From contig CALRHV010000001.1 of NCBI GenBank assembly GCA_943359525.1, positions 7,181 through 71,180 on the forward strand: a DNA stretch of 64,000 bases, given 5' to 3'. The notes beneath the pieces were generated by a model, which worked only from the letters and a program-made list of their open reading frames with translations, ran no database searches and was not told the origin of the DNA. Positions 21,806 through 35,384 of the stretch are shown here, piece by piece. Source of the stretch: Candidatus Uhrbacteria bacterium (lineage in GTDB: Bacteria > Patescibacteriota > Patescibacteriia > UBA9934). Within the stretch, counting starts at the first letter, position 1; each line of letters begins with the position of its first letter. The translations under genes and the position numbers were made by a program.

Positions 21806-22330
21806 ATGATCTCGATCAACAAGCCAGCACCAAGCTTTGAAAACATCACGTCGTACACCAAGGGCGAGTTTACGAAAACAAGCCTCAGCTCGTACAAAGG
21901 AGGCTGGGTGGTGCTGTTCTTCTACCCTCGCGACTTCACCTTCATCTGTCCAACCGAAATTAAGGGCTTCCAAAAGCACGAAGCGGACTTTGCCGCCCTC
22001 AACGCAAAAGTCATCGGCGCATCCACAGACAGCGAATGGAGCCACAAAGCATGGTTTGAAAAGGATCTCCCTGAAGTGGCCTACCCTATCCTTGCCGACA
22101 CAACGCAAAAAGTTTCCCGCGACTACGGCGTGCTCAACGAAGACGACGGCAGTTCCGATCGCGGCTTGTTTATTATCGATCCAGAAGGTGTAGTGAAATA
22201 CGCCCTAGTCTCTGCCGGCTCCGTCGGCCGATCAGTCAAAGAAGTGCTCCGCGTTCTCACAGCACTTCAATCCGGCGAACTCTGCCCAATGGAATGGGAG
22301 CCGGGCGAGAAAACATTGGGAAAGGCGTAA
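21806..22330 (+). CDS. ahpC: Peroxiredoxin (AhpC/TSA family, 2-Cys)
   Basis: 'FFYPRDFTFICPTE', 'GELCPMEW'. Confidence 0.95.
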   Translation: MISINKPAPSFENITSYTKGEFTKTSLSSYKGGWVVLFFYPRDFTFICPTEIKGFQKHEADFAALNAKVIGASTDSEWSHKAWFEKDLPEVAYPILADTTQKVSRDYGVLNEDDGSSDRGLFIIDPEGVVKYALVSAGSVGRSVKEVLRVLTALQSGELCPMEWEPGEKTLGKA

Positions 22331-22348
22331 ACGTCACATATCATCAGT

Positions 22349-22382
22349 AAAAAACTGGAGCCACAACAGGCTCCAGTTTTTT
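22349..22382. terminator. Bidirectional intrinsic terminator
   Basis: A6-CTGGAGCC-loop-GGCTCCAG-T6 between convergent genes. Confidence 0.85.
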
Positions 22383-22641
22383 ACACCGACCGATAGATAT
22401 CGTGATCACCAACAGCAAGAAGGATTATTCCGTCAGTCGATCGTTCAAAAACAATTCTGGTTTTATAGTTTACCGAAAAACTCCACAAGTCATGAAGATT
22501 CCCTTTTAATTTATGTACTTTTAACGTGCTGTGATGTTCGGGGTTGCGAAACATCTCAACCTTCTCATAGACATCTTGTCGAAGATCTTCCGGCAAAGAA
22601 CTCGTCATTTTTATAAATTGCTTCGTAAACTGAATTCGCAT
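22381..22641 (-). CDS. RelE/YafQ-like type II toxin
   Basis: 86 aa; 'LKVHKLKGNLHDLWSFSVNYKTRIVF', 'VGDHDIY'. Confidence 0.85.
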   Translation of the reverse strand: MRIQFTKQFIKMTSSLPEDLRQDVYEKVEMFRNPEHHSTLKVHKLKGNLHDLWSFSVNYKTRIVFERSTDGIILLAVGDHDIYRSV

Positions 22642-22644
22642 ACG

Positions 22645-22866
22645 TTATGAAACCGCTTCAACGAGGGCCTTCAGATCTCCTTCGTAAAGCTCACCATTCC
22701 GGGCTTGTCGTTGCGAAATCAACACTGCGTTTAAAGCCTCTTCCTCAGAAAGCCGAATAATCGCTTTTCGCACAACTTCGGCTTTTGTTTCTGCAAAACC
22801 CATCTTTACCAAGCGCTCAATGATATTCTCCAGTGTTGGAGTAAGTGGTACAGAAAGTGTAGACAT
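22645..22866 (-). CDS. Ribbon-helix-helix antitoxin (putative)
   Basis: 73 aa; 'TLSVPLTPTLENIIERLVKMGFAETKAEVVRKAI'; directly upstream of the toxin. Confidence 0.75.
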   Translation of the reverse strand: MSTLSVPLTPTLENIIERLVKMGFAETKAEVVRKAIIRLSEEEALNAVLISQRQARNGELYEGDLKALVEAVS

Positions 22867-22867
22867 A

Positions 22868-22899
22868 TAGTAATGTTATGTCATCATATTACATTGCTA
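22868..22899. promoter_or_regulatory. Inverted repeat, probable TA operator
   Basis: TAGTAATGT-N14-ACATTGCTA immediately upstream of the antitoxin ATG. Confidence 0.5.
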
Positions 22900-22928
22900 A
22901 CACGGTGAAGTCAAACGTGCTCCTCATT

Positions 22929-23060
22929 TACCTCATCTCCGCCGGCAGGGAGTGCCGATCGGTAAAGAAAGCGATGCGTGTACTGACGGCACTTCAATCC
23001 GGCGAACTCTGCCCAATGGAATGAGAACCAGGAGAGAAGACATTAGGAAAGGCGTAAACG
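22929..23060 (+). pseudogene. Duplicated, decayed 3' end of ahpC
   Basis: Translates YLISAGRECRSVKKAMRVLTALQSGELCPME*EPGEKTLGKA*, versus ahpC ...RSVKEVLRVLTALQSGELCPMEWEPGEKTLGKA*. Confidence 0.9.
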
Positions 23061-23064
23061 AAAA

Positions 23065-23160
23065 CACGGTCACCCCAATTGTTCAGGATGACCGTGCGAG
23101 TGGTCACCCCTATCTTTCGGGATGACGTTGTAAGTGTCACTCCTATTGCGTTGGAGTGAC
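23065..23160. repeat. Three tandem related hairpins (33-34-bp period); the last on the minus strand may terminate 23179..23895
   Basis: GTCAC(C/T)CC-loop-GG(A/G)..TGAC units at 23069, 23103 and 23136. Confidence 0.7.
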
Positions 23161-23983: not shown

Positions 23984-24012
23984 ACTATACCACAAAATCA
24001 GCTCCTCGTCAA
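23984..24012 (-). promoter_or_regulatory. sigma70 promoter (TTGACG-17-TATAGT, extended -10); its -35 lies inside the upstream terminator hairpin
   Basis: Minus strand TTGACG aggagctgattttgtgg TATAGT. Confidence 0.7.
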
Positions 24013-24076
24013 GTGACGATGAGCTGATTCTTGGCTAATATTAGCTAAAAGTAATGTTAATATATCCTTCAGTTCA

Positions 24077-32543: not shown

Positions 32544-33977
32544 CTAATAGCTCCGCGCAAACACAACGCGTTGATTCGATGGCTTTCCTGAGAATACGCA
32601 GGTTCCCGATGAGGAAGCCTCGGAGAATGGAATACAGCGGATCGTCGCGTTCGTTGCCTCCTTAATCTTCTTTTCATCGTCCGCATCGCCAGACCAATGT
32701 GCGGTCACAAACTTTCCAACCTCGATCGCGGTTACGAATTCGTCCCATGTAGAAACACCCACCGAGTTCGATTCACGGTGCGCGAGCGCACGATCGAAGA
32801 GATTCTTCTGGATCGTGACCATGAGATCGGAGACTATTGCTGCAGCATCGCCGATCGCCACACGAGACTTTTCACTGGTATCACGACGCGCAATGACAAC
32901 CTCGCCAGCCGCGATATCCTTCGGCCCGATCTCAACACGGACAGGAATCCCCTTCTTCTCCCAGTGAAAAATCTTCTCGCCAGGACGACCGTCGCGAGTA
33001 TCAATCTTGCCTCGAACGCCAGCAGCCTGGAGCTCGGCGAGCAATGCGTTCGCCTTTTCCATAACCGGTGCGCGCTCCTCGTCCTTGAACCACAATGGAA
33101 TAATGATCGCCTGAACCGATGCAACCTTCGGCGGAAGAACGAGACCCTGATCATCAGAGTGCGTCATGATCAGTCCACCGATCATGCGTGTTGAAACACC
33201 CCAGCTTGTCTGCCACGCAAGTTGTTCGACATTATTTTCGTCGCTAAATTTTACGTTGAATGCTTTTGCGAAATTCTGTCCAAGGTTGTGCGAGGTGCCG
33301 AATTGCAACGCTTTGCCGTCCTGCATCATCGCTTCGACACAATATGTGCGGAGCGCACCGGCAAATCGCTCGCTGTCAGACTTTTGCCCAGGGATCACCG
33401 GAACCGCCATCACGTTCTCGGCAAAGTCCACGTAGATATCGAGCATCTTTCGCGCAAACGCGTCAGCCTCGTCGTGGGTTGCGTGAACCGTGTGCCCTTC
33501 CTGCCACAAGAATTCTGTCGTCCGAAGGAACAAGCGCGTTCGCATCTCCCAGCGCACCACATTTGCCCACTGGTTGATGAGCAGAGGAAGATCGCGATAC
33601 GAATGGATCCAACCGCTGAACACTTCGTACATGATGGTTTCCGATGTTGGACGGACAACCAACGGTTCGTCGAGCTTCTTTCCGCCAGCATGTGTAACAA
33701 CAGCAACTTCTGGCGCGAATCCTTCGACGTGTTCAGCTTCACGACTCAAAAAACTCTGTGGAATAAATAATGGGAAATAGGCATTCTCAACGCCAATGGC
33801 TTTAAAGCGAGCATCAAGATCCTTTTGGATCATCTCCCAAATGGCATAGCCGTGCGGCTTAATAATCATGCAGCCCTTCACCGGCGAATGCTCGGCCATG
33901 TCTGCGGCAGAGATCACGTCGAGGTACCACTGGCTGTAATCTTCAGCACGAGGAGTGATGCGAGTATTGGAAGCCAT
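32544..33977 (-). CDS. proS: Proline--tRNA ligase (archaeal/eukaryote-like type)
   Basis: 'RPTSET', 'QWANVVRWEMRTRLFLRTTEFLWQEGHT', C-terminal 'FARSY'. Confidence 0.97.
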   Translation of the reverse strand: MASNTRITPRAEDYSQWYLDVISAADMAEHSPVKGCMIIKPHGYAIWEMIQKDLDARFKAIGVENAYFPLFIPQSFLSREAEHVEGFAPEVAVVTHAGGKKLDEPLVVRPTSETIMYEVFSGWIHSYRDLPLLINQWANVVRWEMRTRLFLRTTEFLWQEGHTVHATHDEADAFARKMLDIYVDFAENVMAVPVIPGQKSDSERFAGALRTYCVEAMMQDGKALQFGTSHNLGQNFAKAFNVKFSDENNVEQLAWQTSWGVSTRMIGGLIMTHSDDQGLVLPPKVASVQAIIIPLWFKDEERAPVMEKANALLAELQAAGVRGKIDTRDGRPGEKIFHWEKKGIPVRVEIGPKDIAAGEVVIARRDTSEKSRVAIGDAAAIVSDLMVTIQKNLFDRALAHRESNSVGVSTWDEFVTAIEVGKFVTAHWSGDADDEKKIKEATNATIRCIPFSEASSSGTCVFSGKPSNQRVVFARSY

Positions 33978-34011
33978 AAAAAAGAAGGAAAGAATGCCAC
34001 GATGGTACCGG

Positions 34012-34038
34012 AAAACAAAAAACTCTCCAAATGGAGAG
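34012..34038 (-). terminator. Intrinsic terminator ending the putative large ncRNA
   Basis: Minus strand CTCTCCA-TT-TGGAGAG-TTTTTTGTTTT. Confidence 0.7.
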
Positions 34039-34766
34039 AATGATAAAGCCCCATGAGCATTCCGATTTTCACGTCGGCGATCTCATGGGGCATCGTTTGG
34101 TTCACGTGTCACTCGTTGGCCGAAACTGTTTTTTTAGGTTGGGGCCGGTCGTTGTCGGGAAGAAACTCCCCTTAGGCGACCGGCCTTGCCCCAGTGGAGA
34201 TGTTCGCGTCGGCCGACGCTACTTATCTTTGATGCTCCGTTTGCACCCCACACGTTTCTGCCCCGGTTGGAGCGTCCACTTTGTTCAATCCTGCTTGCAA
34301 GGCTAGGACTAAACCGGATGCTCTGCACTCCTCACTCATGTTGACCTCCCGGCCAATGAATGGCTACAGAACTTGGGGAGGGCTTTCTCTGCCGGTATGG
34401 TTTGCGGCCACCCACTGCAAAGTCTTCTCCTCGCCATTGATGAATCTACCGATGGGAAGCAATCTTTTCAGATTACGCCATCGTGTAGTGTCGTTCACCA
34501 ACTTCCAGGCGACAACCTGGGCGGTGATCGGACTATTGGTCCGTCACCTTTCGCGCCGATGGTCCTCAGGCGGACCCACAGGAGCCCAATGGCCCCCACA
34601 CGCCCATTGGCACGTGCAATCCTCATCCCCTTGCGAGGGACTCGCCTGACCGGGATGAGACCCGGCATGAAAAGGCGTGGCCCATCGGGCCGGAGGAGCT
34701 TATTGCTGTTGAAGGTCGATGCTGCTGTCGCATCGCTATGTGACCATCGCCGCGGGGCTCAGGTAC
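34012..34766 (-). ncRNA. Putative large structured non-coding RNA (~750 nt), family not recognised
   Basis: Consensus promoter upstream, terminator downstream, no credible ORF, more than 10 nested helices including GNRA tetraloops on the minus strand. Confidence 0.6.
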
Positions 34767-34773
34767 GAGAACT

Positions 34774-34802
34774 AGCATACCACATTTTCCCACTTTGGTC
34801 AA
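34774..34802 (-). promoter_or_regulatory. sigma70 promoter TTGACC-17-TATGCT with extended -10 TG
   Basis: Minus strand TTGACC aaagtgggaaaatgtgg TATGCT. Confidence 0.75.
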
Positions 34803-34872
34803 GTGGATTAGCGTATAAAACACAAGAATATCCTTTAAATAGGCACTTTTTGTCTTCTCCGCTCTCTCTCAA

Positions 34873-34897: not shown

Positions 34898-35003
34898 GCG
34901 TGTTTCTAAGACTACTCAGAACAGTGAATCGATTTCCATGTATCATCGATGCAGCGACAGAATCCGCAAAAATTCTTATCTACAAGTGTCGCAAAATACA
35001 TCT

Positions 35004-35384
35004 ATGATCGAACAACTCAATCCCAATCTCTCAGAAGAACAAAAGAACGTCTGTTTTTTGAAAGGAACCGAGGCGCCGTTTAGTGGAAAGTATTACAAAA
35101 CCACGGATTCTGGGATGTACGTTTGCGCCAATTGTGGCCATGAATTGTTCGGATCGGACACAAAATTTGACTCTGGAACGGGTTGGCCAAGCTTTTGGGA
35201 TACTGCAAATTCGGAGAATGTTGCGACGGAGACGGACCGCGAGCTCGGCATGGCACGAACCGAAATTCTCTGCGCGAACTGTCGTGCACACCTTGGCCAC
35301 GTGTTCCCCGATGGGCCGAAACCGACCGGAAAACGATATTGTGTGAATTCGCTGTCGCTGGATTTTCAGCCGAAGCAGAGTTGA
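35004..35384 (+). CDS. msrB: Peptide-methionine (R)-S-oxide reductase
   Basis: 'GTEAPFSG', 'GTGWPSF', 'HLGHVFPDGP', 'RYCVNS'. Confidence 0.96.
   Translation: MIEQLNPNLSEEQKNVCFLKGTEAPFSGKYYKTTDSGMYVCANCGHELFGSDTKFDSGTGWPSFWDTANSENVATETDRELGMARTEILCANCRAHLGHVFPDGPKPTGKRYCVNSLSLDFQPKQS

Follow-up and report, generated by a model that had tools for sequence, protein, structure and literature searches.

The window, by which we mean the whole stretch of 64,000 nucleotides analysed here, contains a gap between proS and msrB in which we identified a candidate RNA gene on the minus strand (34766→34012), equipped with its own promoter and terminator (Table 1). Both signals were present as the original prediction had claimed (promoter 34802-34774 and terminator 34038-34012, minus strand), and Pfam agreed with its choice of flanking genes. 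The gap had also been said to hold no credible open reading frame (ORF), and none of the five chance ORFs over the region (57-178 aa) matched Pfam at E ≤ 0.1. The RNA and proS lie on the same strand, with the terminator ending ~35 nt ahead of the proS start codon. An Rfam scan, one of the checks proposed for this RNA, returned no family at E ≤ 10; across the 64-kb window the sole match was tRNA-Asn, the only tRNA of the window, which lies 22 kb from the RNA locus. The RNA is single copy in the 865-kb genome (hereafter G000), where BLAST and nhmmer gave no second match and the best other match to it spans 18 nt (E 0.044).

Table 1. Positions of the features at the proS-msrB locus, numbered along the window
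Feature	Position	Strand	Remarks
msrB, divergent upstream neighbour	34938..35384	+	SelR domain (Pfam)
Inverted repeat centred on the -35 hexamer	34790..34806	-	6-bp arms in the window unit
Sigma-70-type promoter with extended -10	34774..34802	-	TTGACC-17-TATGCT plus extended TG
Predicted ncRNA, ~755 nt	34012..34766	-	Putative start at a G conserved in sister promoters
Variable 5' domain	34553..34753	-	Closing helix of 11-12 bp, 34753-34742 with 34564-34553; inner fold uncertain
10-bp hairpin	34523..34548	-	Pair probability ~1.0
Hairpin 34520-34505 and predicted pseudoknot	34489..34520	-	Loop 34514-34510 complementary to 34493-34489
Conserved long-range helix around a GAAA-capped stem	34436..34502	-	34502-34494 with 34444-34436
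Domain with inner hairpin 34411-34397	34375..34435	-	Hairpin loop identical in G012
Hairpin with self-complementary loop CUUGCAAG (34301-34294)	34283..34314	-	Candidate symmetric kissing loop
Conserved 3' core	34130..34253	-	Covariance models R1/R2 and pair counts
3' hairpin, sequence not conserved	34048..34091	-	Pair probabilities
Intrinsic terminator	34012..34038	-	Hairpin 34038-34023 plus U tract
Separate proS promoter	34002..34030	-	Putative; -35 within the terminator hairpin, -10 TACCAT
proS, downstream neighbour	32544..33977	-	ProRS with C-terminal domain PF09180 (Pfam)

The numbers of promoter-like sites (2, with 1.4 expected) and terminator-like sites (3, with 2.1 expected) were not above chance by themselves, and we consider the two signals credible because they are conserved in relatives. 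A hairpin with a U tract terminates every sister unit. The promoter pattern was found at this locus only, at 10 sites in 9 of the 14 genomes of the genus (none for the reversed control); as these sites served to design it, the pattern informs by its uniqueness alone. The arms of the inverted repeat on the -35 hexamer, which are at least 7 bp long in 8 of 12 unit promoters, vary in sequence yet remain complementary in the sister promoters, which speaks less for an operator than for a hairpin or cruciform in the DNA or for an insulating terminator.

Inverted repeats centred on the -35 element are frequent in strong sigma-70-like promoters throughout G000 (for example at window positions 34790-34806 and 23998-24024), with arms of at least 7 bp at 7 of 15 consensus promoters compared with 3.2% of 1084 TTGAC sites. 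Two related reverse transcriptase genes of 322 and 332 aa (C7:35210-35821 and C13:14047-14655; loci L036 and L037) also lie downstream of a palindrome-containing promoter-like site, and are possibly diversity-generating retroelements. Elsewhere in the window (21806-23100, minus strand), the 3' end of a peroxiredoxin-like gene (21806-22330) appeared by eye to be duplicated near 22940-23050, the duplicated ends flanking a small toxin-antitoxin-like pair (~22380-22870).

The 759 nt from promoter to terminator folded on the minus strand with an MFE of -323.4 kcal/mol (z -6.62). None of 20 shuffles was as good, which answers favourably the folding check that had been proposed; the plus strand of the same interval gave z -4.04. 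Random windows of 755 nt from this genome (22, with 7 shuffles each) had a mean z of -0.9 and a lowest of -5.2. The tmRNA and RNase P RNA of this genome reached only -1.5 and -1.6, and the window RNA is therefore unusually stable. The folding z by itself is uninformative on function.

The variable 5' domain cannot be aligned to sister units. Downstream of it, the predicted pseudoknot retains a complementarity of 4-6 bp in all five units that have the hairpin, with no compensatory change within the pseudoknot. The conserved 3' core consists of a GUGG/CCAC helix around an AAACGGA hairpin (34246-34232) and a GGCC-loop hairpin (34219-34206), followed by a long stem (34185-34143). Each of the 23 helix-arm motifs named in the original prediction was found where it had been placed, but several of the arms pair otherwise in the ensemble and in relatives. 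The arm at 34556, assigned to 34682, pairs instead with 34753-34742 (p ~1.0); the pairings 34359/34433 and 34231/34269 conflict with helices supported by relatives, and 34566/34643 and 34586/34604 fall outside the helices with p > 0.6.

The BLASTN search for homologues, also proposed at the outset, was productive for one genome: among about 60 relatives only G012 matched, in three short blocks. We read the syntenic site (ABC-F, optional msrB, proS) via msrB and proS, and found 14 promoter-to-terminator units of 398-902 nt next to proS in 10 of the 14 genomes of the genus, G000 included. Seven genomes have a single unit (G000, 755 nt; G012, 858; G005, 902; G001, 669; G006, 857; G003, 583; G010, 630). 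Tandem units occur in three: G002 carries three (580, 447 and 676 nt), G008 two (773 and 491 nt), and G009 one of 540 nt together with a 5'-truncated one of 398 nt. No unit was found at the proS site of G007 and G011, or in the ~230 nt ahead of proS present on the contig of G013; the contig of G004 begins within proS and leaves the site unreadable. In 16 genomes of other genera, nine of them inspected in full, tRNA or protein genes precede proS.

All 14 units had the lower energy on the promoter strand, with z from -4.1 to -9.4 for 13 of them and -16.3 for G008b (10 shuffles). Over all units, GNRA and UNCG loops made up 35 of 227 on the promoter strand, against 4 of 203 on the complementary one. 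The 5' ends are shared between G002B and G002C and between G008a and G008b. The tandem loci themselves bear traces of rearrangement. In G002 (L030, C6:11837-13697), a terminator-plus-promoter block of ~170 bp recurs as almost exact repeats between three different RNA bodies, and in G009 (L031, C9:28637-29619) a deletion from inside the -35 palindrome took the promoter and the 5' half of the last unit.

Nine units contain an ordered core, recognized by model or by motif order. It comprises a hairpin with a mostly self-complementary loop, the GUGG/CCAC helix around an AAYGGA hairpin and, in eight units, the long stem; five units also keep the upstream hairpin, with a loop able to pair 15-21 nt further on. 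Model R1, built from four units, recovered two held-out units (39.8 and 33.8 bits). Model R3, built from two A-type units (G002A and G009A), aligned in register to G009C (25.4 bits), G012 (16.5 bits) and G001 (12.4 bits); because reverse-strand copies of the long stem score 12-30 bits with the core models, these A-to-C-type links are not decisive alone. The first two core hairpins stand in the same order in G006. The loop is palindromic in six of the seven units compared (that of G009A is not), and its core switches between UGCA and CAUG, the switch occurring in G005.

In a MAFFT-only alignment of four units, 4 of 23 pairs were compensatory, a count reached by 18 of 500 shuffles, and 73 of the 500 attained the covariation score. 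With six units aligned by fitting to the model, a procedure that leans towards the model and puts the 5' part of G005 out of place, 6 of 23 pairs were compensatory, and none of 500 shuffles matched this. Between G002A and G009A, 116 predicted pairs showed 6 both-side and 16 one-side changes, and 12 of 31 predicted pairs changed in a loose alignment of the middle part. We take these pair counts, drawn from four to six related sequences, as consistent support for the core but not as a formal test of significance. The remaining five units (G002B, G003, G008a, G008b and G010) have little in common with the others apart from promoter, position and density of hairpins, and could be distinct RNAs.

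The RNA changes rapidly. It is barely alignable between genomes whose tmRNAs are 94-96% identical (identity to the G000 tmRNA, obtained for four of five genomes: G005, 96%; G012, 95%; G009, 94%; G001, 85%), and a BLAST search of the genomes did not connect the RNAs of G005 and G009 with the window unit. In the four closest genomes, identity amounts to 92-95% for the neighbouring ABC-F protein and to 45-54% at fourfold sites. As judged by this comparison, the RNA sequence diverges close to the neutral rate, a rate that alone does not establish positive selection. Since the fold is kept while the sequence changes almost neutrally, selection appears to act on pairing and a few loops.

Outside the genus, R1 found nothing in the 54 other genomes of the family (68 family genomes in all), R2 nothing in 137 order-sample and 150 class-sample genomes, and R3 nothing in 137 order-sample genomes; the order and class samples held 151 genomes each and were searched with stricter filters, only the top candidates per genome being scored. 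BLAST against phage and plasmid collections gave no match to the RNA, and four viral pattern scans returned 0, 4, 3 and 0 hits, all seven of them chance matches in unrelated sequence. A core pattern run on the genome collection marked 110 stretches, and R1, applied to the 80 listed, retained only L126 and L157; nhmmer across all fetched loci added L198. In metagenomes, 3 of 57 promoter-pattern hits were real (L086, L091 and L063). Because the RNA changes so rapidly, the lack of matches outside the genus means 'not found', not 'absent'. The literature searched, mostly open-access, held no description of such an RNA in Patescibacteria or Uhrbacteria.

As far as sequence and comparison can tell, the locus has a promoter, a terminator, structure on the RNA strand, a core selected for pairing, tandem paralogues, and losses in sister genomes. 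We are highly confident, on these grounds, that 34766→34012 is an ncRNA gene. It very likely represents a real, undescribed family among the large orphan structured RNAs, unusual in its rate of change and its tandem cassettes, whose function we infer. The central claim of the original prediction, a large multi-domain novel ncRNA, thus stands, supported by strand-specific folding, genus-wide conservation of promoter and position, compensatory changes in the core and the lack of an Rfam match. The fuller description, a stand-alone ncRNA gene of ~755 nt that acts as a scaffold or decoy by its shape and is the founding member of an undescribed genus-level family of Uhrbacteria-like Patescibacteria, has in our judgement an even chance of being right. 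For the narrower choice, a scaffold or decoy rather than a ribozyme, an antisense RNA or a leader, the balance tips slightly in favour.

The predicted RNA would be made constitutively and would work by its shape, not as a catalyst, base-pairing regulator or leader. A few fixed loops (AAYGGA, CUUGCAA and the pseudoknot loop) would be displayed on stems that are free in sequence; such short fixed loops on exchangeable stems give the RNA the look of a scaffold or decoy. With so few single-stranded residues fixed, we do not favour a catalytic role. The self-complementary loop would most likely pair copies of the RNA with one another, as in OLE and GOLLD. Palindrome switches are seen in the intermolecular kissing loops of both (PMC12286853), and the similar switching of the loop here makes self-association the mechanism that we prefer. 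The palindrome in six of seven units is only suggestive of a GOLLD/ROOL/OLE-like homo-oligomer, and we hold self-association through this loop tentatively, at somewhat less than an even chance. The resulting scaffold or decoy would then bind a protein or RNA partner. Our best reading is that the RNA is probably a dispensable scaffold or decoy. Against it count the two genomes with no gene at the site (G007 and G011) and the other genome windows that reach z -5.2.

A bolder reading takes the units as modular conflict decoys that mimic protein-binding RNA motifs, among them a Racr-like repeat, and titrate host or phage proteins. It builds on a CRISPR-repeat-like module, a common stem with an identical 14-nt end, that G002B, G008b and G010 carry at different positions in otherwise unrelated bodies. 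Against Rfam CRISPR-DR10, G002B scored 25.8 bits (E 0.024), the best of 11 matches but under the gathering cut-off of 39; G010 scored 17.5 bits against a CRISPR repeat family on the opposite strand. The module stands behind a promoter in one copy per genome, in these three sister units only, and cas1 was not found in any of five genomes tested (the control matched in 7 of 14). Six of 162 genomes of the order contain the 14-mer: it lies in the G002, G008 and G010 units, once in G026, and in two chance hits inside ORFs, which weaken the case. The rapid turnover, tandem arrays and shared 5' ends would also fit a conflict gene.

Two stretches outside the genus loci bear the same kind of end. In G026 (L255, C1:22200-22420), a structured stretch of ~200 nt runs from a promoter-like site to a terminator-like hairpin and has the CRISPR-repeat-like end; it also carries the hairpin found at the start of G008a. 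A viral contig (L234:590-630) holds a CRISPR-repeat-like unit of 36 nt, with the 14-nt end, near tRNA-like genes and as the only copy in the 1.2 kb examined; from its sequence, we regard this unit as a candidate RNA anti-CRISPR.

Racrs are described as solitary repeat mimics behind a promoter in PMC10651486, and the three sister units resemble them in having a single CRISPR-repeat-like stem with a handle behind a promoter. They differ in that the module appears to lie within an RNA of 450-630 nt on a cellular chromosome and scores below the cut-off, and its motif is absent, in the transcribed orientation, from the SRU table of that paper. CsrA, a possible target of GGA loops, was not found in the genome itself. 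Known Racrs, moreover, sit on viruses and plasmids, and we know of no route by which RNA would enter a host cell. Because the window unit lacks the module, we consider the reading as conflict decoys unlikely, and its extension, in which a host-dependent bacterium uses the locus as a cassette site for modular, rapidly evolving decoy RNAs against host or phage RNA-binding machinery, a shade more doubtful still. In this version every unit would be a large folded platform on which the motif mimics are shown. If it holds, phage RNA anti-CRISPRs would have a counterpart encoded on a cell's chromosome, and conflict systems based on RNA a new kind.

It is likewise unlikely that the RNA is an undescribed ribozyme, a very divergent GOLLD/ROOL-type RNA or a relic of an intron. 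Its size, pseudoknot, and variable 5' and conserved 3' halves do recall GOLLD (PMC12286853), and the genome has two reverse transcriptase genes. Yet a comparison of all 14 units with 4227 Rfam families at E ≤ 10 gave no group I/II, ROOL, OLE or ribozyme match and otherwise sub-threshold noise. The GOLLD model RF02032 (cut-off 150 bits) was silent at the locus in all five genomes searched at E ≤ 10; its one match, of 20.5 bits, lay elsewhere in G006, and control matches in 5 of 14 genomes were none of them above the cut-off. The ROOL model RF03087 matched in none of five genomes, a result to be read with a control that matched nowhere, and cmscan of the 14 units found none. No match to OLE (RF01071) was obtained at E ≤ 10. 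The locus has no prophage, phage or tRNA-island context, and phage and plasmid collections gave no match. The reverse transcriptase genes lie on other contigs and have no sequence in common with the RNA, which for its part is bounded by its own promoter and terminator, unlike a group I or II intron. The original prediction had suggested a possible ribozyme; the lack of a long conserved single-stranded core, the small number of conserved single-stranded residues and the rapid sequence turnover speak against it. Its placement in the size class of GOLLD, ROOL and OLE is a fair comparison that does not extend to membership in GOLLD or OLE.

Other known RNAs were also rejected. The original prediction had found no hallmarks of RNase P RNA, tmRNA, group I or II introns or a T-box, and for none of these does the locus have an Rfam match. 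The RNase P RNA of the genome (RF00010) lies at C3:14257-14657 and its tmRNA at C16:5547-5945, with no copy of the former at the locus or of the latter in the window. Against its family the RNase P RNA reaches no more than 55.6 bits, and it apparently carries a long insertion. 6S RNA (RF00013, a rod of ~190 nt) was found in none of five genomes (control in 5 of 14). SRP RNA had no Rfam match, and PF00448 (Ffh) was not found in G000; in relatives, it gave two weak partial matches in ORFs of 600 aa. A template RNA of the two reverse transcriptases was rejected on the lack of a second copy of the RNA in the genome, an antisense RNA on the lack of a long match elsewhere in it, and a CsrB-like sponge for the cell's own CsrA on the lack of a CsrA match.

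We think it improbable that the gene is a domesticated stack of REP-like DNA hairpin repeats that is transcribed from a strong promoter but has almost no function. The repetition of terminator hairpins within G002, G003 and G009, the near-neutral divergence and the two sister genomes with no RNA would suit such a stack. A REP or REPIN origin is at odds with the single copy in the genome, where the next best match is the 18-nt one, and with the strong strand bias of tetraloops and energy; the nested multi-way core and pseudoknot in fixed order would be unneeded by DNA hairpin repeats.

Less probable still is a regulatory leader of proS, either T-box-like or a riboswitch attenuator, as the shared strand, the short distance from terminator to start codon and the constant position by proS might suggest. 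No T-box or riboswitch match was obtained, and proS has a conserved promoter region of its own, the -10 part of which is retained in G007 and G011, where the RNA is missing. Another gene sits between the RNA and proS in G001 and G006, each tandem unit has its own terminator, and the unit has outlasted an exchange between two ProRS types. This exchange took place within the genus, behind the same promoter region: G000 and G005 have a 477-aa form with a C-terminal PF09180 domain and the other genomes a different type of 411-417 aa. Finally, a decayed protein gene or a chance GC-rich spacer, to which the overlapping chance ORFs of up to 178 aa might point, is scarcely credible, as those five ORFs have no Pfam match, the sense ORFs of the units (6-122 aa) share no common frame, single-base indels occur inside conserved blocks, the syntenic site of the 10 unit-bearing genomes showed no protein homologue that spans the region, and structure is conserved where sequence is not.

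Bacteria have few large orphan RNAs, three of which proved to form RNA-only assemblies. A reduced genome of 865 kb, in which no match to cas1, CsrA, 6S RNA or SRP54 was found, keeps an RNA-only gene of 750 nt that relatives have duplicated. Its 14 very divergent versions with a small common core make the essential parts easy to name. The speed of change and the tandem cassettes set the family apart from the slow-changing orphan RNAs, and suggest a possible connection with host or phage conflict. LhrC and Qrr are examples of tandem multicopy sRNA genes, likewise arranged head-to-tail with a promoter and terminator each; the present units exceed them several-fold in length, are highly structured and mutually divergent, and have no shared seed or genomic target match. 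ROOL (RF03087), OLE (RF01071) and the raiA motif RNA are also large, ornate orphan RNAs whose function is unknown or partly known, from which the present units differ in having neither an Rfam match nor a conserved partner gene alongside, and in a twofold range of lengths within one genus. With GOLLD, as described in PMC12286853, the window RNA has in common a length of ~800 nt, many helices with pseudoknots, and a conserved 3' and variable 5' region, a layout that amounts to an architectural resemblance only. The palindromic loops of GOLLD form intermolecular bridges (PMC12286853), and a palindromic loop is present in six of the seven units compared here. In contrast to GOLLD, the window RNA stands in a chromosomal housekeeping context, was found in one genus, turns over much faster in sequence, and occurs as tandem divergent units behind repeated promoters.
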